This document shows, piece after piece, positions 3,380 through 60,822 of a stretch of 64,000 nucleotides of DNA. The position numbers were made by a program, and so were the translations under genes. The stretch is from positions 4,526,001 through 4,590,000 of the forward strand of contig JAWMAR010000122.1 of the NCBI GenBank assembly GCA_036785375.1, given 5' to 3'. Each line of letters begins with the position of its first letter. Within the stretch, counting starts at the first letter, position 1. Source of the stretch: Leucoraja ocellata. Lineage: Eukaryota. Under the pieces are notes generated by a model. It did not search any database. It saw only the letters and a list, made by a program, of their open reading frames with translations, and had not been told where the DNA came from.

Positions 3380-3565
3380 AAGTGTAAGAAGGAACTGCAG
3401 ATGCTGGTTTAATCTGAATATAGGCACAAAAAGCTGGTGTAACAAAAAGCTGGAGTGACGTTTCTGGTCGGGTCTGAAGAAGGGTCTCGACCCGAAACGT
3501 CACCCATTCCTTCTCTCCAAAGATGCCGCCTGTCCAACAGAGTTACTCCAGTTTTTTGTGTCTAT
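3380..3565. mobile_element. Inverted doublet of the PLE terminal repeat
   Basis: A minus copy followed by a plus copy of the ...gatgctgcc...gagttactccagc... repeat. CTCCAGTGGTTGT is duplicated at 3362-3374 and 3566-3578. Confidence 0.8.
3470..3505 (+). ncRNA. Minimal hammerhead ribozyme motif in a PLE-derived repeat
   Basis: GGGU-CUGAAGA-A-GGGU(CUCG)ACCC-GAAA-CG-UC/ACCC. The core is intact, stem I is GGGU/ACCC, stem III is a vestigial palindrome (ACGU), and the predicted cleavage is after C3501. Confidence 0.7.
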
Positions 3566-3899
3566 CTCCAGTGGTTGTGTTATTGGGCTTTACATCCTCA
3601 ACAGCAAATAAGCAATTGGTTCGATGTTTAATCGCATGCCTTAGCAAAGAAGCTTGACCAGTCATGGTGATTTATCCTCAACTTCACTGGCCCAGAGCAC
3701 AAAGTGGCTTAGCAGAACAAGAATAGAGTTCCCTTGGTCCTCACCATTCACCTCACCATCCTCTGCCATGCATGTTCTCTGGAGATGCTGCCTGAGCTGC
3801 TGAGTCATTACAGCAGTTTGTGTCTTCTTTTAATGAGAAACTGACCATTGACTGTCATGACGCCTCCCCCCACTCTCCCCTCCCATCCCCCCAGTACAT

Positions 3900-4236
3900 T
3901 GATTGAAAGACCCACAGAGTCCGTTCCCACCATTGATCACCTGTTCACACTAATTCTGCTATCCCATTTTCGCATCCACTCTCTGCACACTAGGGGCAAT
4001 TTTACAGAGGCCAATTAACTTACAAACCCACACGTCTTTGGGATGTGGGAGGAAACCAGAGCACCCATAATTTTTAAGTCACTGATCAGGTTGGAATTGA
4101 ATGCAGTTTAATCTCTGACTCATGGTAACATGGAGAACATACAAACTCCACACAGACAGCACCCCGAGTCAGGATTTAACCCAGGCCTCCGGTGCTATGA
4201 GGCAGCAGCTCTACCGGCTATGCCACTATGCCACCC
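3900..4236 (-). mobile_element. V-SINE with an internal foreign insert
   Basis: Consensus is interrupted at ~4067-4120. Confidence 0.75.
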
Positions 4237-4246
4237 ATTGACATCA

Positions 4247-4660
4247 TTACTCCCACTATCTTGCTTGTATTTTCCCCCATTCCCATCCCCCTTCGTGTGC
4301 TCACATTTCTCCCATTATCCTGCCTCTCTCCCCACCCTGGGTCTCCTTCCACCTATATCCCTCCCTTTAGCTTTACAATTCACTCCTCTCCTTATCTGAA
4401 ACCATTTTGTCTCCTTTTCATCTCTGGCGTTTGTCCACCCGTCTGCAAATCAAAACTCATTCACCTATCAATTTCCAGGCTTTGTACCACCACTACCCAT
4501 CTATTTTTCCAGCTTTCTCCCCCCTGCAGCAATCAGTCTGAAGAAGGGTCCTGAGCCATAGCATCGCCTATTCATTCATTCCACAGATGCTGCCTGACAT
4601 GCTGAGTTACTCCATCACTTTGTGTTTTACGCAAGATTCCAGCATCTGCAGTCCCTTGTC
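4247..4660 (+). mobile_element. PLE 3' end fragment with terminal repeat
   Basis: Pyrimidine-rich 3' region, then agtctgaagaagggtc, gatgctgcctgac and the cagcatctgcag tail. Confidence 0.7.
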
Positions 4661-5122
4661 TCCCCACTAGTCTATGTTACTGATCTCAATGTACTTTCAG
4701 CTCCACATTCCCACCTCCTCTCATTCACATTTCACACCCCTTATTTATAAAGAATCTATCTTCCTATGCCAGAAAAAAAATGTTCAAAGTTTATGTTTCC
4801 AACTGGGGGAAAGAAAATTGCCTGATTTCCATCTCGGATGGACAACCTCCGATTTACTTGCAATAACTCCTCCGCTCTAGATTCTCCCTCAAGCGGAAGC
4901 GGAAACTATGAGCTTGGATCTAACTTGGCTGTGATGTTCCATTGTTTGCTCCCACTGCTGAAACTTGTTGTTCAAGCCCACATGTTAAAATGCTTTTAAT
5001 CAGAATTTCTGTAGAAGCTCTCCATAACACCGGTTTGATTTGTAGGAGGACAAGATGTTTCTGTTTGATGTTTTTATCTTACATTATCCATCTAATCATA
5101 TTTACATTAAATGAGTTTTATG

Positions 5123-5886: not shown

Positions 5887-6370
5887 TGTAGAAACAAGGA
5901 ACTGCAGAAGCTGCTAAAGAGACTAAGGGATGCAAAGTGTTGGAGTAACTCAGCAGGTCAGACAACATCTCTGGAGAACATGGATAAATGACGTTTCGGG
6001 TTGGGACCCTCCTTCAGATTGATTGTGGTGGGGAGGGGGGGGTGGGGAGAAGAAAGATAGAAGAGGGGAGAGGCAGGACAAGGTGTGGTAGCTAATAGGT
6101 GGAATCAGGCAAGCGGGGAGGGGGGAGGGGATGTTAGGCAGATGGCTGCACTAAAGCTACCCCTCCTCCTTTCCTTCTAGCATCATAGTTTGAAACTCTT
6201 CAACCCTCTCTCATATTCTGTTTTTATCTTTGCCCTTTGTCCCAACCTTATTCCTCCCCTCCCCTCCTCCTCCTTCTCCACTACAGTAGGGTCACAACAC
6301 AACATTACCTATCCATGTTCTCCAGAGATGCTGCCTAACCTGCAGAATTACTCCAGCACATTGTGTCCTG
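5887..6370. mobile_element. PLE-derived inverted repeat pair
   Basis: Minus copy at ~5887-6150 and plus copy at ~6290-6370 of the same terminal repeat. Confidence 0.7.
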
Positions 6371-15022: not shown

Positions 15023-15089
15023 AAAACATTATCTGTTCATTCCCTCCTCATGTGCGACCTGACCTGCTGAGTTCCTCTGGATGCATCCC

Positions 15090-16339: not shown

Positions 16340-16895
16340 GAGACACAAGAAACTGCAGTTGTTGGAATATTCAACAAAAAAAACATACATCAGCAAGACC
16401 GAGCTCAGACTGGGCGATACACCAAACACCAACGCCAAGTCCGTCTTAGCCTACATGATCTCCTTGTTACCTAACATCTTAACTCTCCTTCCCATTCTCA
16501 TACAGACCCCACTGTCAGTGTGAAGCCAAATTGGAGGAACAGCACTTCATATTTCATGAGCAGCTTACAACCCAGCAGTATGAATATTGATTTCTCTCAT
16601 TTCAAGTAATCCTTGCATTCTCTCTCTCTCCATCCCTCCCGTACCCTGGTCGGCCTGCGAATTTCACTGTCCGTATTCCTTTGTTATCATCTCCTCCACA
16701 GCCAACAATGGACCATTGTGAGCTCTTTGGTCATCGGCGCCATCTTTGATTTGTTCTGTACCACTTCATACCTCTAGTTTCCCTCTCCCCTGAATCTCAG
16801 TCTGAAGAAGGGTCTCAACTTGAAACGTCATCTATTCGTTTCTCTTGAGATGCTGCCTGTCCCGCTAAATACTCCAGCACTTTGTGTCTATCTTC
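16340..16895 (+). mobile_element. PLE 3' fragment preceded by a short inverted tail
   Basis: GIY-YIG remnants (aaattggaggaacagcacttcatattt; caacccagcagtatgaatattga) and a hammerhead-like core at ~16800-16833. Confidence 0.8.
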
Positions 16896-17162
16896 TTCAA
16901 TCTGATCATCAGATGCTCTGATATCTGACCTCCTCCATGTTTGATGGAGTATATGTGGAATTCTGAAATGGATTGATGTCCACAGGATTGACATTTGGTG
17001 AATGCCTGCAAGAACCATGACAGATGTCAAGATAATGAGTCAGCGACACAAAGTCCTGAGATCGAATTAAAGGTTGTCAAACTGTGAAAGGCAAATTCAA
17101 AAATGTGGTAATTTATGCGTTGGCAACATCAAAGATGAACATGTCAGTTATCAACTTCAAAG

Positions 17163-17350
17163 ACAGATTCAAAGTACTGGAGTAACTCAGCAGTCAGGCA
17201 GCATTTCTGGAGAACATGGTAGGTGACATTTTGGGTTGGGATCCTTCTTCAGACTGCAGAAGATGCTAAGATGCTGCCTGACCTGCTGAGTTACTCCAGT
17301 ACTTTGTGTATTTTCTTTTGCAAACCAGCATCTGCAGTTCCTTGTTTCTA
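17163..17350. mobile_element. Inverted doublet of the PLE terminal repeat
   Basis: Left arm aaagtactggagtaactcagca and right arm tgctgagttactccagtacttt. Only the right arm carries the tail. Confidence 0.8.
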
Positions 17351-19420: not shown

Positions 19421-19434
19421 CTCATTTTAGTTTA

Positions 19435-19710
19435 GATTAGTTTAGAGATACAGCATAAAAACAGTCGTTTGGCCCAGCGAGTCCATTCGACCATCCATCA
19501 CCCATTCACAGTAGTTCTATGTAATCCCACTTTCTCGTGCACAATAGGGACATTTTTTTTTTGCCAATAAACCCTCATACCTGCACGTCTTTGGGATGTG
19601 GGGGGAAACCGGCACACCTGGAAGAAACCCACATGGTCGCAGGGATCACGAGGTCGTGATCGAACCCATGCCTTTGGCTATGTGAGGAGTGGTTCTACCA
19701 GCTGTGTCAC
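19435..19710 (-). mobile_element. V-SINE
   Basis: Consensus match. Confidence 0.75.
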
Positions 19711-20262
19711 CTAATTCGATTTTCCCATTTTCCATTGTGTTGTGTAATGAATTGGAAAATGGGAAAATCGAATTAGCCGACACAGTTGAGTAGCAACTAC
19801 CATCAACTACCATCAAACTAGATGAGACAGATTTAAAACCGAAATAGCAGCTGACATCTGGGCATCCATGATGTGTTGAGGAACGCTGGGAGCAGCAGCA
19901 ATGTATATCACCACAATAGGAAACCTCAAAGCTTAGCAACCCCCCCCCCCCCCCCCACACTATGTAGCCATTTTGTTTAAATGGATGTTGCAAGCAATTA
20001 ACAACAATGCTACGTAACCTATCAACCACTTCCTGCCATTAATAATTACTAGAGTGATTTTCTTACATTCCTACACATCAATTTGACATTTCCTCAGTCC
20101 TGACATACACAGAATGGAGCCTGAAGAAATATTACAGCAAAACAATAATGTATAATTGATGAAAGATGTCTAGATTTGCTCAACTTGGGAACACTTTCAC
20201 ATTGATTCACCAATAATCCATTCTGGGCTTTTAATCTCAGAAGCCCACACATATTCAGTGGG

Positions 20263-20590
20263 TGAACAAGGAACCACAGACATTAGTTTACACAGACAGC
20301 ATGAGTTGGAGCAACTCATCGGGTCAGGCAGCATCTCTGGAGAACATGGATAGGTGGCGTATCCAGTTGGGCCCGCTCTTCATACTGATTGTAGTTGGGC
20401 GGGGGGAGGGGGGGTGATGGGGGTTTGGTGGAAAAAGCTGGAAGGGAGGGGAAATTGAAGAATTCAATATTCATGCTGTTGGGTTGCAGGCTACCGAAGC
20501 CGGGGAAGGAACCCGACTCAAATGTCACTGATCCATGTTCTCCAGAGATGCTGCCTAACCTGCTAAATTACTCCAGCACTTTATGGCTTT
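20263..20590. mobile_element. PLE-derived inverted pair
   Basis: A minus copy with the LQPNSMNIEF remnant, then a plus terminal repeat. Confidence 0.75.
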
Positions 20591-21599
20591 TTTTTTAATA
20601 TTCTCAGTGGGATCTGACGTAAAGATATTTCATTTCTGAAATGTGGCTCAATAATGGAAGTCATTTTCTTTGAACAGAATGTCAAAATGAATACCAATAT
20701 AATTATATTATGATCTCCATGATCAATAGATTTCACACTCAATATTTGTTTCATGCAGATGCAGATAATCATCCAATCCTCACTCCATGAGACATTTTGA
20801 ACTATTTTTAATACAGTGCTAATGAGCAAAGAAGTGAATACCCGTTATGTTTACATAATCTGCCTTTCCTGTTTAATTCCTAATGCATGTTTGTGGAAAC
20901 TTTATAAATGTTCATATTTACATTTAAAATTAGTTTTATAAATGCAAATCATCACCATAGTTGGTCAATTAACTGCAGGATTCTCAAAAGAATTCTCACA
21001 AATTGCTCTCAAAAATTTAGTCTAATGACCATTTGTTTCCTTAATTGCAGTTAAAACGAGGGTATGAAAATGACCTTTCAAGAATGAATATTAACATCTA
21101 GAAGTTCAATGGTTAATAATGCAAAGTTTGCTTTATAAAAGGTTCTGCCTGGTATGCCCAGCTTGATATTAATTGGAAATTTTGCACGACAGTCTGGGAA
21201 TAAATGTACACACTTGCACACTTCATGATAACATCATTAAACTTATTAGATGAATATTGCATTGATACTCTGCTATGTGTGTTTTGAGTCCTAAGGAAAT
21301 AAGAAAACTTTGGTAGAGGTGTTAATGGACAGAGAGCAATGGTTAAAGTGAAGAACAAGGGATCGGGGAATAATTTTTTCACTAAGAGGATGGTTCTAAT
21401 CCAGATCACATTGTACAAGAAGGTGGTGGTGGCAGGTAAGCATCTAGATCATGAAGGGATAGAAGGCAATCGGCCAAATGCTGGTAAATTGGTATAGATG
21501 GGGGCAATAATCAAGATGGGCATGGTGGGCCAAATAGCCTGTTGTTGAACTATCCCTCTCTTTGAGCCTGTGATCTCTCATTATCAGTGTGATCACGTC

Positions 21600-22294: not shown

Positions 22295-22710
22295 CTCCCC
22301 TTCACCTGTATCCACCAATTAATTAGAAACAAAGAACTGCAGATGCTGGTTTATAGCAAAGATAGACACAAAGTGTTGGAATAAATCCACGGGTGAGACT
22401 GCATCTTTGGAGAATAAGAATGGATGACGTTTTGGGAAGAAATTTTGAGAAGAGTCCAGACCCTGAAACATCACCCATAGTTTTTTTCCAGAGATGTTGT
22501 CTGAGCCACTGAATTACTCCAGCATTTTGCGTCTATTCACCTATTACATGCCAGGCTTTGTCCTGCCCCTTCTCTCTTCCGGCTTTATTTACCCCCACCA
22601 ATCCCCGCACAATCAGCCTGAATTAGAGTCCTGACCTGAAACGTCACTTATCCATGTTCTCCAGAGATACTGCCTGATCCACTGAGTTACTCCAGCGTTT
22701 TGGGTCATTT
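22295..22710. mobile_element. PLE inverted doublet nested in another PLE 3' fragment
   Basis: The doublet at ~22322-22533 is flanked by TATCCACCAATTA and TATTCACCTATTA. The host fragment continues to a terminal repeat ending ~22710. Confidence 0.7.
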
Positions 22711-23477
22711 TTTATTATTATAATCATAGCACCATTACTACAAGGAAAGGAACAATTCACCTAGAACCAATTCTCAGAGTAAATTGGGGATGGATAATAA
22801 AAGGATTACTGCTGTCTCACAGATGATTTATTTATAAAACTAAACTACAATTCTCCTGCCAAATAATAGTGAGTTTAATGGCTCTCACGAACATACATGT
22901 ACATTTTTCCATTATTCAGCAATTTTAGTTGAGCAAGAGATATCCTGTGAATTTCATATAGTGACAGGTTACTGGATAAAATGTGATGCTCTGTTATCTG
23001 TCTTGTGAAAATATAAACTGGCTTTCAAGTTCTTGTGAATTTTATAAAACTGTTATATTTCTGCATTAATTGCCAATTAAATATCATATAATGTTAGTGC
23101 TGATGCTTCACGGCATTAATCTCTTTGGTTAAGGGTTAATAATTGATTGGATTGTTGTTTATTATATATTATTGATATGCATTGTGTTTACAGGCCTGCT
23201 TTGCTGCTGCAAGTAAGAATTTCATTAGTTTAGTTTAGAGAGTTTAGTCTAGAGATACAGTGTGGAACCAGGTCCTTCGGCCCACTGCATCCACGCCGAC
23301 CAATGATCACCCATTCACACCAGTTCTATGTTATTCCAATTTTACATCCAATACACAAGGGACAATTAACAGAAGCCAATCAACTTGTACACCTGCACAT
23401 CTTTGGAATGTGGGAGAAAACTGGAGCTCCCAAAGAAAACCCATGTGGTCACAAAATTAATGTGCACACTCCACAGA

Positions 23478-27719: not shown

Positions 27720-28469
27720 TACTCACACACACACGCACACACGCACACATGAGGCTTCGGAGGCTCAATCCAGCGCTAGATGCAACTCAACTCTGCCTGT
27801 CTCGCCGGGTTAACCTACAGCCCTGCCTGTACTGACGGGACACCAGCGCTGCTTCTCCGCGCTGGCTGTAAACCTGGGCCATATTTCCCGCAAGCCCAGG
27901 CAGGGCTGTAGGTTAACCTGGCGGGACAGGCAGAGTTGAGCTGGGTTTAGCGCTGCTTCTCTGTGCTGGCTGTGGGCCTGGAGGCACAGCTCCCATCTGA
28001 CTCCCGACGTCTCTGGCCACCTCCGGGCGTGGTGGGGGGGGGGGGGGGGGCACTCGGGTGGGGACGGGACAGCGCCGGAGAGCCGGGATCGATCCTGGCT
28101 GCGGATGAGGTGCAGGTCTGTGCCGAGAGTGTTTTGGCATGTCTCCCTCCTCTAATCACTGCGCTCTGTCCTCAGTCTCACCCCCCCTACTTCCGCCTCT
28201 GATCGCGCACCTCCCTCCTCCAATGATCGTACAGAATCTTCATGTCCTGCCCCATTGCCTGCTGACTGACGTCTCTCTCGTCCAATCGACGCCCTCGATC
28301 AGCAGTCCCACCCCCACTGTCTCGCGGAAAGCGGAGATTTAACCGGGTTTTAAAATCCGGATTACAAAAAATAGGGGGGGGGGGGGGGTGATCGTCCCCC
28401 ACCTCTCAAAACAGGGGGGGGGGCGTGTGTCCCCAGCCCCCCCCCCCCCCCCCGGGATTTCCGCCCCTA
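27720..28469. mobile_element. GC-rich insertion, possibly a non-autonomous hAT-like element
   Basis: Right end gggatttccgccccta with C/G-run subterminal repeats. TAGGTAGG occurs at 27712-27719 and 28468-28475. No clear left TIR. Confidence 0.45.
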
Positions 28470-29557: not shown

Positions 29558-29880
29558 ATGTAGAAACAAGGAACTGCAGAGGCTGGTTTACACGAAAAAG
29601 ACACAAACTGCTGGAGTAATTCAACAGGTCAGGCAGTATCCTTGGGAGAACATGGATAGGCGACATTTCAGGTTTGGGACTCTCTTTGAAAAAAGGTTAA
29701 AAAGTGCTGGAGTAACTCAGCAGGTTAGGCAGCATCGCTGGAGAAGACGAATAGGTGATGTTTTGGGCTAAGACCCTTCTTCGGGCCTCTCAAAAAGGGT
29801 CCTAGCCTGAAATGTCACCTATCCATGTTCTCCCAAGGATGTTACCTGACCTGCTGAATTACTCCAGCACTTCATGCCTT
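29558..29880. mobile_element. PLE terminal-repeat cluster (two minus copies, one plus)
   Basis: Repeated gctggagtaa...ggcagcatc...ataggtga units in tandem, then inverted. Confidence 0.75.
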
Positions 29881-31692
29881 TTATTTGTGTCCTAATTGTT
29901 AATATTTATTGTTTTCTTGGGTTTCTATAAAATGTCTTCAGTTTACCTATTCTTCCTCTGCTGCCAAAAGTTATTTGTTGAACTATACATTTAACCCTGC
30001 TGGAATATTTATCCAGTGTTATTTTTCCAGTTTGATTTCTTGTACTGTATATCCCAATATATCTTTTGATATTTGAGGATTATGTGAAATAATTTATATT
30101 GTCTCAAAACTCTCAATGACTTTGAATAAATCATTACAGTTGTCATTTACAGTTCTATTGCCAGCAGGTAAGAAATCACAAAACTGTACAAAAAATAAAA
30201 AGCTTAACCTGTAGCAACCAATATTTCTAGGAGTTTTAAATTCTTAGTGACACCAAGTATTATCTTTTCAAGATATATCCATCGTCAACCATTATAAGAG
30301 TATTAAGTCTAAGCGAGTATTTGGGTGTTTTAATGTAGCTGGTTAAATTCTCTGTTTCCAGAGAGGGATCAAGGAGAGGGATGGGTAGGATTTGAGCAAT
30401 GCCGAGGTAGCTCCTGACTGCTTCTGGTGCATGCAAATGCAAAGAATAACACTCTAAGGGATCTCAGCACATCCCAAATATTAGGATAGGCTTGAAAACA
30501 CAGCAGCTAAAAGTGTGATTTAATGATTGGAACTAGACTAATTTGTAAATTTGTGCAATATGACAGAAATTAGCTGAAAGCGGAAATAGGTTGGAATCTT
30601 ACATTATAACATTGTTTTTAGGGGCTTCCGTATGATGCCTGAAGGTCCATTGACTTTCCAATGGGTTAGGCATTTTTTGCCCCATATCCCTCTATACCTT
30701 TCCTATCCATGTACCTGCCCAGATGTCTTTAAAAGGTTGTTAAACATGTTGTTTTAAATGTTCTTCTTTGTGTGTTTGTAGTATGGCATGCCATATTTCT
30801 CATTTAATCCTGAAGTCATAGAAATGGATCATAGTTATAGAGAGTTATAGAGTCATACAGCGTGGAAACAGGCCCATACCGACCTGCATGTCTCAGCTAC
30901 ATTAATCCCATATACCTGCATTTGGCCCATATGCCTCCAAAACTGTCCTATCCATGTACCTGTCTATTTTTTTTATTAACATCAATTCGCTACATGCTAG
31001 AAGGTAATTTCACTGAAACCAATTAACTTACAAACCTGCACGTCTTTGGAATGTTGGAGGACAGTGGAGCACTAAGAGGAAACTCATGCATGTACAAGGA
31101 GAATGTGCAGACTCCACACAGACAACACTTGAAGTCAGGATTGAACCGGAGTCTCTCATGCTGTGAGGCAGCAATGCTACCACCCATGCCATGCCCTGCA
31201 TGACTTGATCTTCCAAAAAGAAACCAGCACCTCCATGAGAACTTCCAGTCTCAACAGTCACAAGCCATTACTCTGTAAAAGCTTCAAGCAGTGGAGCTGA
31301 ATTGTGTTCTATTTTCATGTCATACGGCAAACAGCAACATCAACACCACTGTTTATTAACTATATTTCTGCCGTCAACATCATAATTCCAATACAACTCA
31401 CGCTGACTTCCTGGACCCTGGACTCAGCACACACTTTGCATCATAATCTCCACTTACTGACCAACACACCACAATCATAAGCACAGGTAATAAAACAACC
31501 ACCACGAAAATTCTCAATACTGGTGCCATGCAAGGATGTATTCTCACTTCTCTTGAAAGCCTGTACCATCAGCTTCTTCCCCACTGTTATCAACTATTGA
31601 ACCGACCTCTCATAAACTGAGGATGTAGTCCTGATTCTCAATCTACCACTTCGAAGCACTTGGAATTTATAAAATCTGCACTTTCTCTATTT

Positions 31693-37189: not shown

Positions 37190-37400
37190 AAAGACATAAA
37201 GTACTGCAGTAACTCAGCGGATCAGGCAGCATCTCTGACGAACATGAATAGGTGGCATATCGGGTCGGGACCCTTCTTCAGAAGAAGTGTCTGACCTGAA
37301 ACATCACCTATTCATGTTCTCCAGACATGCTGCCTGATTCGGTGTGTTACTCCAGTACTTTGTGTCTTATTTTGTGGACCAGCATCTATCATTCCTTGTC
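37190..37400. mobile_element. Inverted doublet of the PLE terminal repeat
   Basis: Minus arm ~37190-37281 and plus arm ~37278-37400 share a central ttcaga/gaagaag. Confidence 0.8.
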
Positions 37401-40199: not shown

Positions 40200-40772
40200 T
40201 ACCCTTTGAAGGTAAAAGGAGAAAGATTTAACAATAACCAGTGGGGTAACTTTGTTACACAAAGGGGGGTGGGTATATGGAACAAACTGCCAGAGAAGGA
40301 AGTTGTGGCAAAACTGTCATAAAGGGGTTGTCCCACTGTATGAGCTATTTCAAGGGTTCTCCCGAGTTTCCCCTGATTTGAACTCGGAGAATTACGGTAA
40401 TAGCCGCTCGTAGGTACTCGGGGCTCTCGTGGACATTTTTCAACACGTTGAAAAATCTTCACGAGTCTTCACGGGCTTACCGCATTTCCCAAGTACCTGC
40501 CGTTAGCGATACGAGCCACTAAGAGATCCCGAGCTCCGAGGTACCCGCTAAGTACATTCTACGTGCTTACCACGAGTTTGATTTTTTTTTTAAACTCGGG
40601 AGAGCTCTTGAACACCTCATACAGTGGGACAGGCCCTTAACATTTAAGAGAAATTTTGATTTACAGGGTTATGGGCCAAGCGCTGGCAGATGGGACTAGA
40701 GTAGGACATATTGGTCACCATGGGCAAGTTGGACCGCAGGGCTTGTTTCCATGCTGTATGACTATGACTCTA
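40200..40772 (+). mobile_element. CR1 3' fragment (hosts a MITE)
   Basis: aaggtaaaaggagaaagatttaa...tggaacaaactgcc...acatttaag and the 3' tail tatgact. Confidence 0.75.
40323..40637. mobile_element. PIF/Harbinger-type MITE inserted in a CR1 fragment
   Basis: 22-bp TIR AGGG(G/C)(T/C)TGTCCCACTGTATGAG and a TAA TSD. Confidence 0.88.
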
Positions 40773-43077: not shown

Positions 43078-43331
43078 AAATGTGTCTTTCCACCAGAATG
43101 ACATTGCAAATCTTTCATCTGCATGACGGTTAACAGACGGACAATCAGATCTTTGCGAAATTGGGCTTATTTATTTTACATACTTTGGTTATTGATCTTA
43201 ATGAGCTTAAAAATGTACCTATTCCTTTTCTCCGGAGATGTTGCCTGACCCGCTGAGTTATTCCAGTATTTTGTGTCTACCTATGGTGTAAACCAGCATC
43301 TGTAGATCATTCCTACACATTATTTTTATGT

Positions 43332-43568
43332 TGTAGCAGCACCTGCTGGTGCTCGCAAGTATCGAACCCTGCGGTTGGAATCCGCGCACACGTGACTCTG
43401 GGAGAGGTCGTGTTTTCGCACAGTTTTCAGGACTCTGCCCTTCAGTTGTTGTGAGGCCACTGTTGTGGTCAGTTGTGTTTTCACTGGCAATTGTCAAGAC
43501 CGTGATCGATGAATTATGTTGAGAATAAATCTGATTTAAACCAACCGCCTTTGTCTTGATCTGTCAAA
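43332..43568 (+). mobile_element. Solo LTR of the same Gypsy element
   Basis: Collinear with 44437-44664 (TGTAGC...TCAAA). The flanks ATGT/ACAT fit a CpG-decayed ACGT TSD. Confidence 0.9.
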
Positions 43569-46500
43569 ACATGTTCTTTTCACTGAGATTCATTTTTACC
43601 TGAAAAATAGGGCCTGCTGTTCAATATGTAGATGTGAAGAAGTGCCTAGATGCTGTGCACATTTAACTAAACAGCTTGTAGTGAAAACATAAACATTCCT
43701 GCAGTTGCGTAACATCAGTAATGTGATTACAACTTGGGACAGTGTTACTTTGTGAGTTTCTGTCAAGAACTACATTTCTGAGGAGCAATTAGTAAATTCC
43801 ATTGCATTACTCCTTTCTTAAACATATTTTCAGTCTTGTTTGCTTGATGATGCCTATTATTGATCTCAAGGTGAATTCTTTATGATTCTTGCTGCTTAGT
43901 TTGCCTTGGATAATTAATACTCTCATTCGCTCGCATTTTGTACAGCTTGTACTACGTGAAAACAAAAAAACAATAGAAATAGGAAATCACAGATGTATAT
44001 CTGAGAAAAGGGCCCTCTGGCACAATGTCCTTTTTGCCCATCCATACCAAACCTATTTCTCTGCATTAGGAATGTATCCTTCTTTGTCTTATTTACTTCA
44101 GTGTCTGCCTAATTGCCTCTTTAAACATGGTAATTGTATCTGTTTGCACCACCTCCTCAGGCAGCATATTCCAGGCATCAACCACATCGATGTCATAATG
44201 ATAAAGGCAAAATACAGCTTCTACATTCTAAGAAGTTTTAAGAGATTCAGCATTTTTCCAAATACTCCAACAAACATGGCAGCACAGTCGTGCAGCATGG
44301 TCTTAATGAGCTTAAAAATGCGCCTATTCCTTTTCTCCAGAGATGCTGCCTAACCCGCTGAGTTATTCGCGCATTTTGTGTTTACCTTTGGTGTAAACCA
44401 GCATCTGTAGATCATTCCTACATATCCTTTTTACGATGTAGCGGCACCTGCTGGTGCTCACAAGTATCGAACCCTGCGGTCGGAATCCGCGCGCACCTGG
44501 GAGCGGTCGTGTTTTCGCGCAGTTTTCTCTGCCCTTCCGTCATTGTGAGACCACCATTGTGGTCAGTTGAGTTTTCAGTGGCAATTGTCAAGACCGTGAT
44601 CGGAGAATTATATTGAGAATAAATCTGATTTAAACCAAACGCTTTTTTGTCTTGATCCGCCAAATTGGTGACCCCGACCCGTCGGAGTTAGACAGAGAGA
44701 CCATGCAGGACAATTACCTTCCCACCGGCGCTGCGGGCATCCAGCAGGACACGGTCAGCCTCAGACTGCCCCCGTTTTAGCCCGATCAGCCCCAGGTATG
44801 GTTCGCGCACGTGGAGGCGCAGTTCTATCTGCACCACATCGCCGCTGATGAGACAAGATATTTCCACGTGTTGGGAGTCCTACCGCAGGAGTCTGCCTAC
44901 CGTTTGCTGTCCTATCTGTGAGACCCACCTGCAACGGCCAAGTACGATGGTCTCAAGTCTCTGTTGCTGCACACGTTCGGGCTCAGTCGTCGTGACCGTG
45001 CGTGCCGCAAGGATCCTTCACATGGACTGTATGGGCGATCGAAGACCCTCCACCCTGATGGCCCAGATGCTGGCCTTGATGGATGGCCACCGCCCCTGCC
45101 TGCTTTTCGAGCAGGCTTTCCTCAAACAGATGCCCGATGATGTCCACCTGATGCTCGCCGGCACCGATTTTAATGAACCTCAACAGCTCGCGGAGACGGC
45201 CAACGAACTGTGAATGACATGGCACCAGGAGGTCTGCACCTTCAGCCGTCACGCTGCACCGGCTCGATTACCGCCACGGCGGCCACGCGAGGAGGCCCCC
45301 CAACCGGCCCCCTTTGAGTAACAGCCGCCATGCCCCGAGACCCATAGTAATCGCCACTAATGCTACTATCACCTCCGTTTCGGCATGGAGGCGCGACGCT
45401 GCAGAAATCCCTGCACGTTTCAGGGAAATGCCTTGGTCGATTCCTGTAGAGGCGACTGCGATCGGCCGAATGAGCGCCTCTTCGCCTGTGACCACCACAC
45501 TGGCCGCCATTTTCTCGTGGACTGCGGTGCTATCGTCAGTATCCTTCCTCCGACCGGCCGCGATACCCCTGATGGTAAGATAGGCCCCGTCCTCTGGGCC
45601 ATTAACGGGAGTGACATTTGAACGTACGGTACGCGGACTCTTAATCTCATTTTCGGCTCCCACCCGTACAGTTGGAAGTTTGTTGTCGCTAACGTTGCCC
45701 AGACGATCTTGGGGGCCAATTTCCTGCGCGCGTTCTCTCTTATCATCGACGTGTGCGGGAGTCGTTTGGCCCCGTTGTCGGACCTCTGCCCCAACACTCT
45801 GCACAGCTTACCCCCACCCGGCCCACAACCCGATGACATCGCGGAGGTCGAGGGCCCTTTCGCTGCTCTACTCTCTGAGTTCCCCGTGCTCCTTACACTT
45901 CGTTTCAGTGGGGCTGCGCCCTGTCATGGTGTAGTACATCATCTTCCTATCTAAGGCCCACCGGTGCACGCCCGCGCGCGCCGCCTGCCACCAGACAAGC
46001 TGCGCATCGCCCGCGATGAATTCCAATTGATGGAAGACATGGGCATTGTCCGGCGGTCCGATAGTCCGTGGGCCTCCCCACTCCATATGGTCCCGAAAGC
46101 GCCTGGATGGTGGAGGGCATGTGGTGATTACAAGCGGCTTAACGGTGTAACCACGGTGGACCGTTACCCATATGCAAGATATTTTGGCGCACCTCAAGGG
46201 TGCCACTTACTACTCGAAAGTGGACCTGGGCTGGGGTTATAATCAGATCCCTGTCCACCCCGATGACATCCTCAAGACGGCCATCATCACCCCGATCGGC
46301 CTTTTCGAATGACTTTGAATGTCGTTCGGCCTAAAGAACGACATTCCAGCATTCCAGTGGCTTATGGATCAGGTCGGGCGGGGCCTGCCGTTTGCCTTCA
46401 TTTACTTGGACGACCTTCTGGAGGCCAGCGGTTCGCAGGCAGAACATGTTAAGCACCCTTGCCTTTTGTTCAAGTGACTGCACGAACACGGCTTGGTGAT

Positions 46501-47672
46501 TAACCCCACGAAGTGCCAGTTCAGCCTGCGCTCCATTTCGTCCTGGGGGATCAGGTCACCCCATAGGGTGCTGAGCCGCTTTCCTCAAAGGTAGATGCTA
46601 TTCGACAGCTCCCTCGGCCGTTGACCGTCAAGGGTTCATCGGTATGGTGAGTTTTTACCAGTCCTGCAACAGGTTGATGACCGCTGGCAGCCGCCTCCGT
46701 TTTTCAGCCAACAGCTGTGAGCTCTGGAATGCAAGTACAGCGCATTAGACAGAACTCCTGGCGCTCTACCTAGCGATCAGACACTTCCGTTATATCCTTG
46801 AGGGCCCGCGCTTTCACTCCTTTCGCAGACCACAAACCGCTCACTTTCGCGCTGAGTAAAATCGTCGATCCGTGGTCCGCCAGGCAGCAGTGGCACCTTG
46901 CCTACATATCCAAGTTCACAACTGACATTCGGCATGTGGCTGGGAAACGTAACATCGTTGCCGAAGCTTTGTCCCGCCCGGAAATCGACTACAGTGAGAT
47001 GGCAGCGGCCCAACAGGCTGATGCCAGCATGGCATGCCTTAGGCAGCTATAAGGCGCCCGTCTGCACCAAACGACAGCTTATCACCCAGAGGCGAATGGG
47101 CTGGTCGAGAGATTTCATCGGCACCTTAAGTCGGCGTTGAAGGCCCGGCTCACCGGTCCGGATTGAATGGACCAGTTGACCTGGGTCCTCCTGGGCATTC
47201 GTACTATGCCTAAGGAGGACCTGGCCGTCTTATCGGTTGAGCTCGTTTACGGCTCAGCCTTACAGGTGCTTGGGGATTTCCTGCCTGCCGCCCGCAGTCA
47301 GGAGGTTTCGGCTTCGGTGATACTGGCCGAACTTCATGAACGGTGCACCCGTTGGCTCCTGTCCCTACTTCCAGGCATGGGTTGACCTCAGTGCATGTGC
47401 CACAGGCGTTGCAGAATTGTGCTTATGTTTTCCTTCACAGGGACGTTCACTGCTCGCCACTGCAGCGGGTTTATGAGGGGCTGTTTCGGGTGCTGCGTAC
47501 CGGAGTCACCACATTCACGTTGGACGTGGGTGGCCAGGAGGAGTTCATCCCCGTCGGCCGTCTCAAGCTGTTCATGGGGACGAGGACAGCCCAGTGTTAG
47601 TGGCTACACCGCGGCGTTGGGGTCGTCTTCCGGTCATTCAGCCCTCTCTTAGTACTACTGTTCCCGGTTCTG

Positions 47673-48014: not shown

Positions 48015-49366
48015 TCTATATTACTAAAAGTCTCATCTTGACCACTTCCTGGTGCACTGCATATTGATTATATATAGAAAAAACGCTGCCACTTACAGCA
48101 GTGATTTTTGGCCATCTTACTCAGAGCCCCCTTCCGCTGCGCAGGACAAGAGGATTTTTTCCATCGATGAAAAATAAAAGACTTATTAATGTTTAGAAAA
48201 TGTTGAGATTCTCTCTCCTGAAGGCCACGCCCCTTCCAGAGGGACTATGAAACCCGGAAGTATGGAGGTGCCTCAGTTCTCTGCAAGATTGGGTGTGAGA
48301 GGTCGCCATTCTCTGTCTGAGCTGTGAATAACACTGAACACATGTCTACTAAACTGTGAGTGGTTTTACAGACCTGTCAGTGCCCTTAATGCGGTTTGAA
48401 AACATAGTTTGAAAATGCCAAATTTATTTTGGTTTGAAAATGCGAAAGCTGTGTTGCCTTTGGTTTTAAAATGCTAAAGCTGGGTTGCCTTTAGCATTTT
48501 CAAACCAAAGGCAACACAGGTTTACCATGTTGAAGCCAAAGGCAACACAGTTTTTGCATTTTCAAACCAAAGGCAACACAGCATTAGCATTTTCAAGCTG
48601 TTGCCTTTGGTTTGAAAATGCTGAAGCTTCCTTGCCTTTTGTTTGAAAATGCTAAAACTGCCTGTCTTATTAAAGTTGCCTTGCCCGATTAAAGTTGTCT
48701 TGCCTAATTAAAGTTGCCTTGCCTAATTAAAGTTGCCTAGCCTAATTAAAGTTGCCTAGCAAAATTAAAGTTGCCTTGCCTTCTATATAATTAAAAGTCT
48801 AATCTTGAGCACCTCCTGTTTGCGCTTTATATTGATTTTAGAAAAAAGCTCTACCACATACAGCTGTGATTTTTGACCATCTTACTCAGAGTCCCCCACC
48901 GCTCATCAGGTGCCGAGGAATTTTCCCATCGATGAAAAATAAAATAATTATTAGTGTTTAAAAAATGTTGAGATTCTCTCTCCTGTCAATCAGGCAACGA
49001 AGGCCACACGCCCCTTTTGGTGGGAGGAGGAGGGACTATAAAACCCATGGGCGTGGCTCAGATTCTGCAAGATGGGGGAGAGAGAGGTCACGACTCGCTG
49101 AAACTGCACCTTGAATTTGGTGGCCTTGCACCCTGCTTGAAGTGGTATGAAACTGCATTTGAATTTGCTTAAAATGGAATTTCAATAAATAGCCATGTCA
49201 ACTGCCAGCCCACCAGCCGTGAGGGAGTGAGCTGCCAGCACAACAGGCTTGAGTGACTGAGCCGCAAGCCCATGTCCACACTAGCACTCTGTAAACCAGT
49301 CCCTTCAGCCCACAACACCCATACTAGCCCCCCCCCCCCCCCCCCAATGGGTCCCACTTAGTCTAG
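48015..49366 (+). mobile_element. Non-autonomous composite Helitron
   Basis: Starts TCTATATTACTAAAAG and ends CTAG. It sits between A and T with no TSD; the empty site gaatta^tattgag is seen in the 5' LTR. A second 5' end lies at 48782. The 3' hairpin is degenerate. Confidence 0.88.
48395..48781. repeat. Minisatellites inside the Helitron: ~31-bp unit with an inverted block, then a 19-bp unit x6
   Basis: tttggtttgaaaatgctaaagctgtgttgcc units, inverted at ~48490-48595, and ttaaagttgccttgcctaa units at ~48669-48781. Confidence 0.9.
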
Positions 49367-49592
49367 TATTGAGAATAAATCTGATTTAAACCAACCGCTT
49401 TTGTCTTGATCTGCCAAAACGTGTTCTTTTCACAGGGAGTCATTTTTACCAGAAAAGTAGGGCCTGCTATTGAATATGAAGATGTGAAGAAGTGCCTAGA
49501 TGTTGTGCACATTTAACTACACAGCTTGTAGTGGAAACCCTGCAGTTACGTAACATCGGCAATGAGATTACAATTTGGGACAGTGTTACTTA

Positions 49593-50245
49593 AGGGCCTG
49601 TCCCACTTGGCCATCATTTGCGCGCCATTCACGAGACCTGGTAGTTGCGGGTAGCACGTTGGTGGCATGTGGGTAGCGCGGGACGGGCGCATAGAGTGAC
49701 GTGGAGGAGGGTGGAGTTGTGTGCGGTATCACGCAGCGCTCCAGGATTTCGTTCTGCACAAAATCATCGCGCGCCACTGGCCAGTCGCATAAATGACGGC
49801 CAAGTGGGACACCCTGGCATGGCGCAATGTCTCACCTCCAACAGCAGCAGAAGCAGGCAAGCGATCGCCGAGCTCGGCCTGGGGCTCATGGCCATTGCGG
49901 ACCCGGATCCACCCCCACTCCTACTCCCAGAGCGGGGCCAAGACGATTGGAGATAGACACAAAATGCAGGAGTAACTCAGCGGAACTGACAGCATCTCTG
50001 GAGAGAAGCAATGGGTGACGTTTCGGGTCAAGACCCTTTTTCAGACTGAAGACCCGAAACATCAACCATTCCTTCTCTCCAGAGATGCTGCCAGTCCCGC
50101 TGAGTTACTCCTGCATTTTGTGTTTATCTTCAAATGAAGTCACGCGCTCCAGACGGCTGTGTGGACTCATGATGACGTGCGCGACTGACACGCGTCAGTC
50201 ACTACCGGCCTGTCGCATAAGTGACGGCCAAGTGGGACAGACCGT
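49593..50245. mobile_element. PIF/Harbinger-type MITE
   Basis: TIRs AGGGCCTGTCCCACTTGGCC / GGCCAAGTGGGACAGACCGT with flanks TTA/TAA. The 3-bp empty site is at 43749-43751 in the paralogous unit. An extra internal TIR copy lies at ~49790-49812. Confidence 0.85.
49946..50134. mobile_element. Near-perfect palindromic PLE terminal-repeat doublet inside a MITE
   Basis: Arms of ~84 bp (49946-50029 and 50051-50134) are reverse complements with few mismatches. Confidence 0.85.
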
Positions 50246-50799
50246 TAAGTGAGTTTCTGTCAAGAACTACATTTCTGAGGAGCAATTAGTAAATTCCATT
50301 GCACTACTCCTTTCTTCAACATATTTTCAGTCTTGTTTGCTTGATGATGCCTATTATAGGTCTCAAGGTGAATTATTTAAGATTCTTGCTGCTTAGCTTG
50401 CCTTGGATAATTAATACTCTCATTCTCTCACATTTTGTACAGCTTGTACTGTGTGAAAACACAAAACAATTATAGAAATGGAAAATCACAGATGTATATC
50501 TTAGAAAAGGGCCTTTTGGCTCAATGTCCTTTATGCTCATCCACACCAAACCTATTTCTCTGCATTAGGAATGTATCCTTTGTCTTATTTACTTCAGTGT
50601 CTGCCTAATTGCCTCTTTAAAATGGTAATTGTATCTGTTTGCACCACCTCCTCAGGCAGCATATTCTAGGCCTCAACCACATCGATGTCATAATGATGAA
50701 GGCAAACCAACACCTCTACATTCTTAGAAGTTTAAAGAGATTCAGCATTTTTCCAAATACTTCAACAAACATGGCAGCACAGTTGTGCAGCATAGCCAA

Positions 50800-56753: not shown

Positions 56754-57023
56754 GTAGAAATGTAGAAACAAAGAACTGCAGATGCTGATTTACAAAAAAA
56801 GACACAAAGTGCAGGAGTAGCTCAGCGGGTCAGGCAGCATCTCTGGAGAACATAAATTGATGACATTTCTGGATGGGACACTCCTTCAAACTGATTCCGC
56901 TGAGTTACTTCAGCACCTTGTGAATCAATCTGATGAAATGTCCCGATCTAAAACGTCACCTATCCATGTTCTCCAGAGAAGTCGCTTGACCTGCTGAGTT
57001 TCGACAACACTTTGTCTGCTGCA
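56754..57023. mobile_element. PLE inverted terminal-repeat cluster
   Basis: ATGTCAGCAA is duplicated at 56744-56753 and 57024-57033. A minus copy is followed by plus copies. Confidence 0.75.
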
Positions 57024-57706: not shown

Positions 57707-59127
57707 ACAAAAGTGCTGGAGAAACTCAGTGGATGCAGCAGCATCTATGGAGCGACGGAAATAGGCAACGTTTCGGGCCGATACTCTTCTTCAGACTGAT
57801 GTAGGGTGGTCGGTGGGGGGGGGGGGGGGGGGGGGGCGGAGAAGAAAGGAAAAAGGAAGAGGAGGAGCCCGAGGGCTGTGGGAGAGCTGAGAAGGGGAGG
57901 AGACAGCAAAGGCTACCGGAAATTGGTGAATTCAATGTTTATGCCGCTAGGGTGCAGACTGCCCAAGCGGAATATGAGGTGTTGCTCCACCAATTTCTAG
58001 TGGTGCTCACTCTGGCCATGGAGGAGGCCCAGTACAGAGAGTTTGGATTTGGAATGGGAGGGGGAGTTGAAATGCTGAGCCACTGGGAGATCAGGTTGGT
58101 TAATGCGGACTGAGCGGAGGTGTTCGGCGAAACGATCGCCAAGCCTACGCTTGGTCTCACCGATGTAGATCAGCTAACATCTAGAGTAGCGGATGCAATA
58201 GATGAGGTTGGAGGAGATGCAGGTGAACCTCTGTCGCACCTGGAATGACTGCTTGGGTCCTTGAATGGAGTTGAGGGGGGAGATAAAGCGACAGGTGTAG
58301 CACCTCTTGCGGTTGCAAGGGAAAGTGATTGGGGAGGGGGTGGTGTGGGAGGGAAGGGAAGAATTGACTAGGGAGTTACGGAGGGAGCGTTCTTTGCAGA
58401 AAGCAGCTGGGTGGGGGGGGGGGGGGGTGGGGGTGGGAGATGGAAAGATATGGCGAGTGGTGGGGTCACGTTGGAGGTGGCGAAACTGACAGGGGACTAT
58501 TTGTTGTATGCGATGGCTAGTGGGGTGAAAGGTGAGGACTAAAGGGACTCTGCCCTTGTTACGAGTGGGGGGGGGGGGGGGGGGGATGGGGAGAGAGAGC
58601 AGTGTTATGGGGTATGGAAGAGACCCTGGTGAGAGCCTCATCTATAATAGGGGAGGAGGGGAACCCCTGTTCCCTGAAGAATGAGGACATTTCCGATGCT
58701 CTGGTGTGGAACACCTCATCCTGGGAGCAGATGCGGCGTAGACCAACAAATAGGGAGTAGGGGATGGAGTCCTTACAGGAAGCAGGGTGGGAAGAAGAGT
58801 AGCCTAGATAGCCATGGGAGTCAGTGGGTTTATAGTGGATGTCGGTCTGAAGTTTATCACCTGCGATGGAGATAGTGAGGTCAAGAAAAGATTGGGAAGT
58901 GTCGGAAATGGTCCCGGTGTATTTGAGTGCCGGATGGAAGTTAGTGGTGAAGCAGATGAAGTCAGTGTGGGTGCAGGAGGTAGCGCCAAAGCAATTGTCG
59001 ATATAGCAGAGGTAGAGGTCGGGGATGGGGCCCTGGTACGTCTCGAACAAGGATTGTTCGACGTACCCGACAAAGAGGCAAGCATAGCTGGGGCCCATGC
59101 GCGTGCCCATAGCTATGTACAGCTATG
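57707..59127 (-). mobile_element. Penelope-like element (RT C-terminal part + GIY-YIG endonuclease + terminal repeat), decayed and 5'-truncated
   Basis: RT motifs MGTRMGPSYACLFVG, YIDN and FLD...YKPTD, a Cys motif CNRKRCYTC, and GIY-YIG-like NLIYCIR...YIGETKRRLGDRFAEHLRS. ATGATAAGTA is duplicated at 57697-57706 and 59128-59137. Confidence 0.92.
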
Positions 59128-59229
59128 ATGATAAGTAGTTTATTTTTCTTAACAAATTGAATAAAGAGATATGCAGTGTTTTAATCTGCAATAGATAGCT
59201 TGAAATCAAACAGTTCTGAAGGGACAGTT

Positions 59230-59535
59230 TAGCTTTTAGTTTAGTTTAGTTTAGAGATACGGCATGAAAACAGGCCCTTTGCCACTGAATCTACGCCGAC
59301 CAGCGATCGCTGTACACTAGTTTTATCCTACACATTAGGGACAATTTACAGAAGCCAATTAACTTACAAACATGCACATCTTTGTAATGTGGAAGGAAAA
59401 CAGGAGCACTTGGAGGAAACCCACGTGGTCACAGAGAAAATACAAACTGCATACAGACAGCACCCATAGTCAGGATCGAACATGGGTCTGTGGCACTGTA
59501 AGGGAGCAACTCTACCACTGTGCTACTGTGCTGTC
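59230..59535 (-). mobile_element. V-SINE
   Basis: Consensus match, full length. Confidence 0.8.
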
Positions 59536-60602
59536 CTGGTCAGTTTCAATGATCAAGTTAGGTGAGCTCAGTCAGAACAGTAATCTTGTCTTCCTTTATT
59601 ATCATTACATAATAATAAACAAACACCTATTTGGGCCATCACAATCATGTTGGCTCCCAGGGAACCAATTCCATTTATCCCATTATCTTCTCCTAATTTA
59701 CCTGTATACATGGAGTTCATGACAGATATAGCAGTTATCAGACTACTCTCTCAATAAACTAGGGTACTGTACAATCCATCTCTAACCCAATGGACATTGG
59801 ACATCGTTTATGAAAAACATGTGCTTCAATGCTTGAAACTATATTCTGCAATTTGTATTTTCCCCTTTGCTTAACCTATTGTACATGAATTTGACTTGAT
59901 TGTATTTATGTATAGCAGTATCTGATCTGATCGGATAGAATGCAAAACATATCTTTTCACTATATCTCGATTCACATGACAAGAATAAACCTAAACTAAA
60001 CTTGAAAACAATAGGTTTTACATCTTTTAGTTTAGTTGAGTTTATTATTGTCATGTATACCGAGGTACAGTGAAATGCTTTTGTTTGCATGCTATCAAGT
60101 CAAAGAAAAGACTATCTATGAATACAATCTGCAAATTGAGTCAGGATGGAAATTGTTGTAAATTGGTGTAAATTCAAATAACCATCATTGATTGATTAAA
60201 TTGAGCTTATTATTTGCCTTTTGCTTCAAGGACTGGGGTTCAAATCAAACTCTAAGTAATTGAATGTAATTATTTTCTGCAAAGCTGCCAAAATGCAGAG
60301 GAACATTGGGTGAAACCAGTTTGTACTTCACAGATACATTACTTTGTGACCTTCGTTGTGCGGATTTTACATTCGGATTGATCACACGTTGAAGTACACC
60401 TGCCATCAGCTCCTGAAAAGCTGTCAACACAGTGAAGAAAGCTCAAGGCCAAATAACAAATCAGTTGTTAGCACCCAAAAGGCAATTCCTGGCAGAATAT
60501 TTGCTCCACGTTGAACCTCAGTTGCTGAACAATATCCTTTTAAGTCTGAACCATCATGATTCCTTCCTGTACCGCCGCTCTCAGAAAAAGCAAAGAAGGT
60601 TC

Positions 60603-60822
60603 AAGGAAAGATACTAAAAGCTGGAGTAACTCAGTGGGTCAGGCAGAATCCCTGGAGATCATGGATAGGTGACGATTGGGTCAGGACCCTTCTTCAGACT
60701 GGGGACCCGAACTGAAACATTGCCCATCCAAGTTCTCCGAGGATGCTGCCTCATCCGCTGAGTTACTCCAGCCATTTGTGTCTTTCCTTGGTAAACCAGC
60801 ATCTGCAGTTCCTTGTTTCCAC
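60603..60822. mobile_element. Inverted doublet of the PLE terminal repeat
   Basis: caaggaaagatac...gctggagtaactcag on the left and ctgagttactccagc...tctttccttg on the right. The tail is on the right arm. Confidence 0.8.

Follow-up and report, generated by a model that had tools for sequence, protein, structure and literature searches.

In a 64,000-nt stretch of the Leucoraja ocellata genome (GCA_036785375.1, JAWMAR010000122.1, positions 4,526,001-4,590,000 of the forward strand; hereafter the window), copies of a short repeat recur in head-to-head pairs. The question raised by these doublets is whether they move by themselves, as non-autonomous units cut by their own ribozyme and copied by PLE RT, or are left behind by a larger element. 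The doublets are not a new class of ribozyme element. Their arms are terminal modules of a Neptune-type PLE, namely pLTRs that measure 128 nt when they carry a 33-nt tail and ~95 nt when they do not, and their production by PLE RT, which had been predicted originally, holds. Each doublet is probably one short insertion made by the autonomous PLE, being a product formed at landing and not a parent.

The terminal module and its parent element

The 128-nt module constitutes both the 5' UTR of the element's mRNA and the 3' end of the element in DNA, and the ORF starts at +164. Full-length units are repeated in tandem with a period of 3,985 bp, and the 3' termini of copies fall on two fixed points 33 nt apart (+93..96 and +127..129). 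Tandem units, inverted truncated (long) partners and a 30-40-nt tail at one end were all found, as in the pLTRs of PLEs. Locus L192 carries a single RT ORF, a 1015-aa frame with DKG and YIDD and one frameshift, which matched Pfam RVT_1 at the cut-off (E=7e-07). In translation, a C-terminal GIY-YIG domain was recognized by its two motifs, the CxxC separating them and two His residues; its Pfam match is below the cut-off (E=0.002). The linker before the endonuclease in L192 and L161, C-X4-C-X2-C, fits the CX2-5CxxC by which the Neptune/Nematis clade is defined in PMC8557442. Judged from the translations, the parent appears to be a Neptune-type PLE, the diagnostic linker belonging to Neptune and Nematis jointly; the available parts of a preprint (10.64898/2026.07.22.740005) report only Neptune and Poseidon among vertebrate PLEs.

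A profile search detected 45 module copies in the window and none in the reversed control sequence, and the copies fall into five subfamilies (P1, P2, E, B and K). By extrapolation, the genome holds ~1.7 million module copies and ~270,000 doublets, and the module accounts for 4.7% of the sampled DNA. The very high density claimed for the window turned out to be unexceptional (0.69 copies/kb vs 0.49/kb across a sample of 60 stretches of 10 kb each, P=0.075). In each of the five subfamilies, copies that are short, paired in doublets or long and linked to the ORF could not be told apart by their alleles. One locus (L041) is a three-unit head-to-tail array of 130-nt modules.

Head-to-head arms are present at all ten places named in the original prediction, but only eight are compact, and three (22322, 29558 and 56754) hold a third piece. 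The ~33-nt tail is, as predicted, on one outer arm only at nine of the ten sites, the site at 49946 being tail-free. Subfamily B doublets lie at 17159..17350 (tail-less arm, module positions -4..+92; tailed arm from +47, without hammerhead; TSD-like flanks), 37190..37399 (tail-less and tailed arms, 5-nt junction overlap, TSD-like flanks) and 60607..60822 (tail-less arm, -4..+92; tailed arm, +8..+129; blunt junction). The subfamily E doublet at 3384..3567, flanked by a direct repeat of ~13 nt, combines a broken tailed arm on the minus strand (+68..+128) with a tail-less plus-strand arm (-2..+94) bearing an intact minimal hammerhead. The B set at 22324..22713 comprises a tailed arm (minus), a tail-less arm (plus, 22446-22538) and a further copy, in tandem, that lacks the tail and has the 3' UTR. 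The three B arms at 29560..29888 are a tailed and a tail-less one in tandem (minus) and an inverted tail-less one (plus), and the B set at 56762..57015, with TSD-like flanks, is made up of a tailed arm (minus), a 26-nt sense fragment and a tail-less arm (plus). In the B pair at 5888..6367 (predicted at 5887), the tailed arm with 3' UTR (5888-6118, minus) and the tail-less arm (6285-6367, plus) are 166 nt apart and do not form a compact palindrome; the B pair at 20265..20595 (predicted at 20263) has a tailed arm with 3' UTR and a GIY-YIG ORF-end fragment (20450-20500) opposite a tail-less arm.

The E doublet at 49951..50131, tail-less on both arms, is a passenger inside a MITE, a TTAA-flanked element with short terminal inverted repeats (49590..50248), which we take to be Kolobok/T2-like by resemblance. 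This doublet has multiplied as a unit, but inside the DNA MITE that carries and has spread it; the recurrence of its junction was rejected as evidence, since its flanks recur as well (30/30). The window also contains 5'-truncated PLE copies of subfamilies P1 (57707..59119, minus; frameshifted, with the C-terminal half of the RT, linker, GIY-YIG, 3' UTR and tail-less pLTR), P2 (6647..6998, minus; GIY-YIG end, 3' UTR and tailed pLTR) and E (16385..16895, plus; GIY-YIG end, 3' UTR and tail-less pLTR with an intact minimal hammerhead). The P1 copy had been thought to end in the same repeat as the doublets; it ends instead in that of a related subfamily, with which the B and E arms of the window doublets share only 70-85% identity.

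Formation of the doublets

In 600 kb of unselected genome, neighbours within 60 nt were arranged head to head in 47/78 cases vs tail to tail in 3/62. These 47 doublets are free of duplicate loci; the pooled counts of 74, 76 and 58 given below include two duplicate pairs (one locus each) among 22 flank-derived doublets. TSD-like repeats flank 32 of 74 doublets, vs 4.5% of the shuffled flank pairs used as the control; among 20 loci with a palindromic junction, they flank 14 (vs 5%), the direct repeats measuring 10-19 nt when their overlap with the element ends is counted. Exactly one arm is tailed in 34 of the 47 doublets (23.4 expected, P=0.008); in the palindromic-junction class, 19 of 20 have one tail and none has two. 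At odds with the simple form of the insertion model set out below, ten of the 47 have one short outer end (<+80) and five have two tails. Arms of one doublet share non-consensus alleles at 0.148, vs 0.068 between doublets; gene conversion between arms is an alternative source of shared alleles.

All-unique junctions, together with no RNA ends at the predicted site, had been named in advance as the mark of ordinary inverted, truncated PLE insertions. This pattern mostly holds: the junctions are largely unique (non-recurrent in 44 of 47), the breakpoints of old copies being uncertain because 17 of the 47 junctions have >5 unassigned bases. Some junctions do recur, via repeated independent formation at internal palindromes: exact recurrence was found at hairpin-forming palindromes, at 2,166 and 473 loci. 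At 20 same-junction loci, the base at the centre was supplied by the tailed arm in 11 and by the tail-less arm in eight, and is mutated in one; at least four haplotypes are represented, and the two arms within a doublet have alleles in common, some of them private. Because TSDs are frequent, junctions are locus-specific outside internal palindromes, the commonest junction is spread over several haplotypes and either arm can supply its centre base (11:8), the doublets appear to have been formed at insertion.

Insertion would begin with a staggered cut of the target by the endonuclease. One target end would prime at the far start site, by which the tail is kept, and the other at the near site of the same RNA, giving the tail-less arm. 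Both cDNAs would be extended to the RNA 5' end at the first hammerhead base (G-2, most likely the transcription start), a stop that would resemble retroviral strong-stop DNA. Without an onward jump, the cDNA 3' ends would be joined head to head by end joining, most readily where small palindromes of the module make them complementary. In vitro, both strands are nicked and extended by an anole PLE, of which the RT starts at two internal sites bounding the tail (PMC11167929). We tentatively propose a PLE strong-stop step, in which transcription would run from the first hammerhead base, one RT dimer would copy the same RNA twice, beginning at each of the two start sites and once per cut end, and the one-tailed palindromes would be frozen products without a template jump.

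The 5' stop, fold-back and the hammerhead

The 5' ends of 87 of 293 copies fall at -5..+1, the proportion being alike in solos (53/171) and doublet arms (29/94), and the stop is at a single base, the first of the hammerhead (G-2). By hand count, among the 45 short copies within the 100 exact matches listed, 17 end at -2 and nine at -3; G-2 also headed the 5' loose ends in the RNA reads and in the DNA runs from two other organisms. Alignment artefact as the cause of the peak was ruled out by a uniform-truncation simulation. The Inr-like A is -3, yet the modal 5' end is -2, and an extra G does not precede it more often than expected (6/17 among the matches listed). In D. virilis, the start site lies 46 nt upstream of an intron ending at helix I (PMC2377424, PMC4209133), and an upstream start would therefore be expected by analogy, which counts against a start at -2/-3. 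The RNA data comprise one polyA run of a related organism, of which 6% was read and 9,163 reads were placed. These reads look like passive transcription, because 90% extend into unlike sequence and the two mate strands cover the module to about the same depth; one weak begin was seen at -39 (5 molecules), and no pile of begins or ends at the cleavage site or -2/-3, with a threshold that is insensitive under passive transcription.

It is quite possible that this one step of the landing model is instead due to a block or to processing, i.e., that splice-acceptor factors or a bound PLE protein halt the RT, or that the RNA is cut by another activity. A pyrimidine tract-CAG is kept before the core in all five subfamilies, and in the fly element helix I begins where the intron ends (PMC4209133), both of which would suit such a cause; nevertheless, no shared upstream exon was found before the short copies, the TSD abuts the 5' end in 17 of 66 solos ending there (vs 4.5%), no copy spliced from ORF end to core was found in 963 kb, and no RNA splice joint was seen among the 15 joints listed (204 more lay outside the listing).

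A single priming followed by fold-back or template switching, i.e., the self-priming at palindromes proposed by Arkhipova et al. 2013 (PMC3846280), with the tail boundary set by endonuclease resolution, seems an unlikely origin of the doublets. It would explain why exact junctions recur at hairpin-forming palindromes, snap-back predicts the tailed arm with a short, ragged-ended partner seen in six of 47 doublets, and shared private alleles are equally compatible with it. However, fold-back of a tailed first strand requires a tailed arm reaching at least as far 5' as its partner, whereas in the 58 one-tail doublets the tail-less arm is longer in 27, the tailed arm in 17 and neither in 14. The centre base should likewise come from the tailed arm, but the tail-less arm gives it in 8 of 19, and the tail-less ends of doublets match those of solos (+91..99 in 16/28 and 45/66, respectively).

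The hammerhead motifs of the original prediction are real insofar as the module carries the minimal motif of PLEs: a hand-written descriptor (CUGANGA, helix II, GAAA, palindromic ACGU, NUH, short helix I) is satisfied by the majority sequences of P1, P2, E and B, and not by that of K. Intact motifs are rare, being found in 29 of 294 single copies, 2 of 44 window copies, one of seven called window doublets (on one arm) and 3 of 47 random doublets, and the core is reached on both arms in 10 of 47. In Rfam searches of the window and eight loci, neither a hammerhead nor any other ribozyme rose above chance, single-arm MFE folds did not yield a hammerhead, and, as to covariation, the helices of 21 copies are 92% paired with one two-sided change only, not above shuffles. 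An HDV-like fold from G-2 was dropped, having neither an Rfam match nor fitting helices by eye. The envisaged hairpin RNA containing a ribozyme is not supported: the GAAA core is buried in the doublet hairpin (unpaired probability averaging 0.20, vs 0.54 in the arm alone, 49 strands), and the commonest doublet (2,166 exact loci) lacks the CUGAAGA core on both arms. No 5' end among 293 falls at the cleavage site (+27/+28). Minimal hammerheads of PLEs are poor cleavers that depend on another copy in the same sense (PMC4209133), and insertion in vitro can do without cleavage (PMC11167929). The ribozyme has no visible part in doublet formation.

That the palindromic doublet is itself a non-autonomous element, transcribed from either strand, hammerhead-cut and copied by PLE RT, is very improbable, and for the bulk largely refuted: the 188-bp doublet of one junction at many loci (97-99% identity), the doublet spread as a unit (though within a DNA MITE), the L041 array and the short-partner doublets, which could be re-copied doublets, would fit it, but the 188-bp class starts at +10, lacks the CUGAAGA core and is heterogeneous in centre polarity (both occur), haplotype (several) and the position of its tail-less ends (+85 to +102), and the non-recurrent junctions, the cleavage site without 5' ends, the buried core, the need for a same-sense copy and the cleavage-independent insertion all speak against it. 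Doublets do not have the matching inverted ends and fixed-length TSD of a MITE, as the tail makes most ends differ, nor the diagnostic alleles and one fixed junction of a master element. They are also inverted, with both arms intact in 0/47, where a retrozyme has at least two head-to-tail units with a complete hammerhead each.

Comparison with known systems

The origin of inverted pLTRs and one-sided tails in PLEs is called unsolved in PMC8557442 and PMC11167929. The skate genome offers a very large set of minimal products, whose ends, centres and alleles tell PLE models apart and yield exact predictions that suit the in vitro system already established. If the strong-stop reading is true, one scheme would explain the tail, the inverted pLTR and circular permutation, and hundreds of thousands of natural read-outs of the PLE mechanism would be at hand. 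A ~130-nt PLE module making up ~5% of this genome will be mislabelled as MITE, SINE or microRNA hairpin; the module indeed matches many miRNA models below the cut-off.

L1 twin priming, in which both target ends prime, gives an inverted, microhomology-joined insertion with TSD. The two L1 cDNAs cover different parts of the RNA, whereas the skate arms begin at fixed sites and share nearly their whole length. Among the papers that the literature searches returned, none links PLEs with strong-stop or twin priming and none treats the skate module family in cartilaginous fish, although tables of the preprint may list it.

In its core boxes, the unpaired base before helix II and the palindromic ACGU replacing helix III, the skate variant, a predicted hammerhead, resembles the minimal hammerhead of PLEs, and its 2-bp helix I is as in D. 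virilis. The minimal-hammerhead paper notes opposite-strand pairs 100-700 bp apart in Schistosoma; cartilaginous fish, sharks and skates included, are not named in its available parts. Non-LTR retrozymes (Li et al. 2026, preprint 10.64898/2026.07.22.740005) are ORF-less and pLTR-derived, with a type I hammerhead and one chondrichthyan case, and the L041 array fits them; they are head-to-tail arrays with a complete hammerhead per unit, whereas skate doublets are inverted and mostly without it. In the anole Poseidon element PAc (Frangieh et al. 2024, PMC11167929), two internal RT starts likewise bound the tail, both strands are extended and the start lies beside AC; at the skate tail ends, A comes next in 49 of 76 and the mRNA continues with AC. 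PAc belongs to the Poseidon clade and its ORF starts inside the hammerhead, whereas the skate ORF starts at +164 and has a Neptune/Nematis linker.

Another close likeness is to the insertion units of EN+ PLEs (PMC3846280, PMC8557442), which share the head-to-head inverted terminal module, TSD, tandem full-length units and graded 5' truncation. The palindromic junction overlap is 15 bp in both Pen2a_Av and skate P1, and the one-end tail is ~31-34 nt in EN+ PLEs and 33 nt in the skate module. Unlike in those reports, skate insertions are mostly the module alone and their TSDs are 10-15 nt, and a 5' stop confined to one base at the edge of the hammerhead does not appear in the available parts of the EN+ PLE papers. 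The architecture is not novel: PLEs with an inverted pLTR, a tail on one side, a TSD and a palindromic junction have already been described (PMC3846280, PMC8557442, PMC4209133). What is new in the skate is the tail on exactly one arm (34/47), the origin of both arms from one template and the stopping of 5' ends at one base.

Copies of the module and their parent element

Using a profile built on 18 window copies together with self-comparison, we found 45 copies of the module, the terminal repeat (pLTR) of a Penelope-like element (PLE), in the window and none in the reversed control. Positions are numbered on the sense strand of the element, 0 being the C that opens the CTGAAGA core; the predicted hammerhead cut lies between +27 and +28. 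Head-to-head arms were present at all ten places of the original prediction (near 3380, 5887, 17163, 20263, 22322, 29558, 37190, 49946, 56754 and 60603), albeit not in a uniform compact form: eight doublets are compact and three carry a third piece. One of the ten places includes ORF sequence and one sits inside a MITE.

We sampled the genome in 60 stretches of 10 kb, unselected and all lying on large contigs (C1-C178). They contained 294-302 module copies, covering 4.7% of bases; 94 of 294 copies were arms of 47 compact doublets. Extrapolated from these contigs, the genome would carry 1.7 million modules (1.4-2.0) and 270,000 doublets (195,000-356,000). The window is not exceptional in density as had been supposed, its enrichment over the sample being non-significant (P=0.075).

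The module is common to five subfamilies (P1, P2, E, B and K) and is joined to GIY-YIG ends in P1, P2, E and B; the subfamily comparison found no alleles separating long, solo and doublet copies. The window doublets, formerly equated with the repeat ending the P1 element at 57707-59119, belong to B and E and are 70-85% identical to that copy. Relatives of the P1 element are numerous; they are truncated to varying degrees at the 5' end and have long partners in inverted orientation. A complete parent unit of 3,985 bp, recovered from a tandem array, comprises the module, an ORF starting at +164, RT with DKG, a C-X4-C-X2-C linker, GIY-YIG with CxxC, a ~110-nt 3' UTR and the module again. Judged from its sequence, the parent PLE would be of the Neptune/Nematis type as defined in PMC8557442. 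The near-intact full-length unit in this array (G000:C1:8664400-8668560) has a long proline-rich stretch upstream of RT and one frameshift in its ORF.

The window also carries LINE reverse transcriptases at 37300-39801 (+), with an open 833-aa frame matching RVT_1 and ALKBH8_N, which we take to be Rex1/L2-like, and at 61598-63212 (-). Broken LTR-retrotransposon-like pol pieces with protease, RT and RNase H-like motifs (44692-47140) adjoin a ~1.1-kb repeat (43193-44664). Palindromic repeats unrelated to the module (19695-19793, 27771-27955, 34929-35618 and 48428-48660) scored weakly against miRNA models.

Formation of doublets at insertion

The doublets are made during insertion and are very unlikely to be copied as units. 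TSD-like repeats occur at 32 of 74 doublets (control, 4.5%), and 34 of 47 have the tail on one arm and not on the other (23.4 expected, P=0.008). Among these 47, 12 junctions overlap, 5 are blunt, 13 have 1-5 extra bases and 17 have more. Recurrence of central junctions, at issue if the doublet were itself the mobile unit, was confined to 3 of the 47, each lying on the stem palindrome of P1 (+10..+24); the other 44 did not recur. Exact loci numbered 2,166 for this junction and 473 for one at a second palindrome (-5..+3), compared with 42,368 exact P1 motif matches. Arms, alleles and TSDs were read in the first 20 of the 2,166 loci: 17 pair a tailed with a tail-less arm, two a tailed with a short arm, and one has no tail; the centre base comes from the tailed arm in 11 and from the other in 8; at least four haplotypes occur, each common to both arms, with some private alleles; and 14 have a TSD. 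Both centre polarities, the haplotypes, the private alleles and the TSDs together exclude a single parent for this commonest class.

The 49946 junction recurs solely because a TTAA-flanked MITE carries the doublet. This ~660-bp element (49590-50248), with short terminal inverted repeats, took up a PLE doublet, which has multiplied along with it: of 20 matches to the left part of the element, 19 have at least the first arm, and a related end lies at 40624-40640. Elsewhere (contig G000:C10, L024:391-658 and 1367-1725), subfamily B positions +20..+87 make up a 66-bp minisatellite.

The 3' ends of copies are bimodal (+93..96 and +127..129), differing by the 33-nt tail, and both classes reappear as loose ends in runs of other organisms. 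The doublets display two start points, TSDs, the one-tail rule, a shared template, variable junctions and a fixed 5' stop. For PLE insertion, nicking and extension of both strands, two RT start sites and a predicted dimer have been described (PMC11167929). We consider twin priming on one RNA the probable origin of the doublets: each target end would prime at one start site of a common RNA, and the two cDNAs would extend to the RNA 5' end before being joined head to head. Fold-back from a single primer is an unlikely source, as the tail-less arm is longer in 27 of 58 doublets and is the source of the central base at 8 of 19 loci.

The hammerhead and the 5' stop

Hammerheads had been predicted within the doublets. 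The majority sequences of four subfamilies do match the PLE minimal hammerhead, but among individual copies the motif survives in just 29 of 294, and among doublets in 3 of 47, on a single arm in each. Both arms reach the core in 10 of 47 doublets. Cutting of the doublet by its own ribozyme is not upheld, since the commonest class is without the core, the long hairpin buries GAAA in the predicted fold (z=-11), and none of 293 copies has its 5' end at +27/+28. PLE minimal hammerheads are described as requiring a same-sense partner and cleaving weakly (PMC4209133); insertion in vitro proceeds without cleavage, and anole RNA showed no ends at the cleavage site (PMC11167929). An 8-bp helix pairing +49..+56 in mid-module with +103..+110 in the tail can form in every subfamily, with 96% pairing but no covariation, and would enclose the near RT start site.

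The 5' ends cluster at -5..+1 (87 of the same 293 copies), in equal share for solos and doublet arms; an alignment artefact was rejected as the source, a simulation with uniform truncation yielding no such peak. Among the exact P1 matches listed, 100, the first on contig C1, were counted by hand: 55 extend into 3' UTR sequence and the other 45 end at -7..0, with 17 at -2 and 9 at -3. This distribution is consistent with a single end at G-2 together with chance matches. G-2, the base with which the 2-bp helix I of the hammerhead begins, is also the commonest 5' loose end in three sequencing runs, two of DNA and one of RNA. We tentatively favour a transcription start at G-2; a second candidate, almost as probable, is that copying is blocked or the RNA processed at the pyrimidine-CAG site, and some other cause is also among the candidates.

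Comparison with known systems

Inverted pLTRs, palindromic overlap, one-sided tails and TSDs have been described for PLEs (PMC3846280, PMC8557442), as have opposite-strand hammerhead pairs (PMC4209133), and retrozymes are reported from one chondrichthyan (2026 preprint 10.64898/2026.07.22.740005). Three 130-nt P1 modules, each running from -2 to the tail end, lie head-to-tail on contig G000:C61 (L041:8969-9355) in an array like those of retrozymes; the same tail-to-start joint occurs in DNA runs. Our literature search, with the repeat libraries Repbase and Dfam outside the comparison, found no paper on this module family or its 5' stop. The doublets add useful mechanistic detail to a known kind of PLE insertion.
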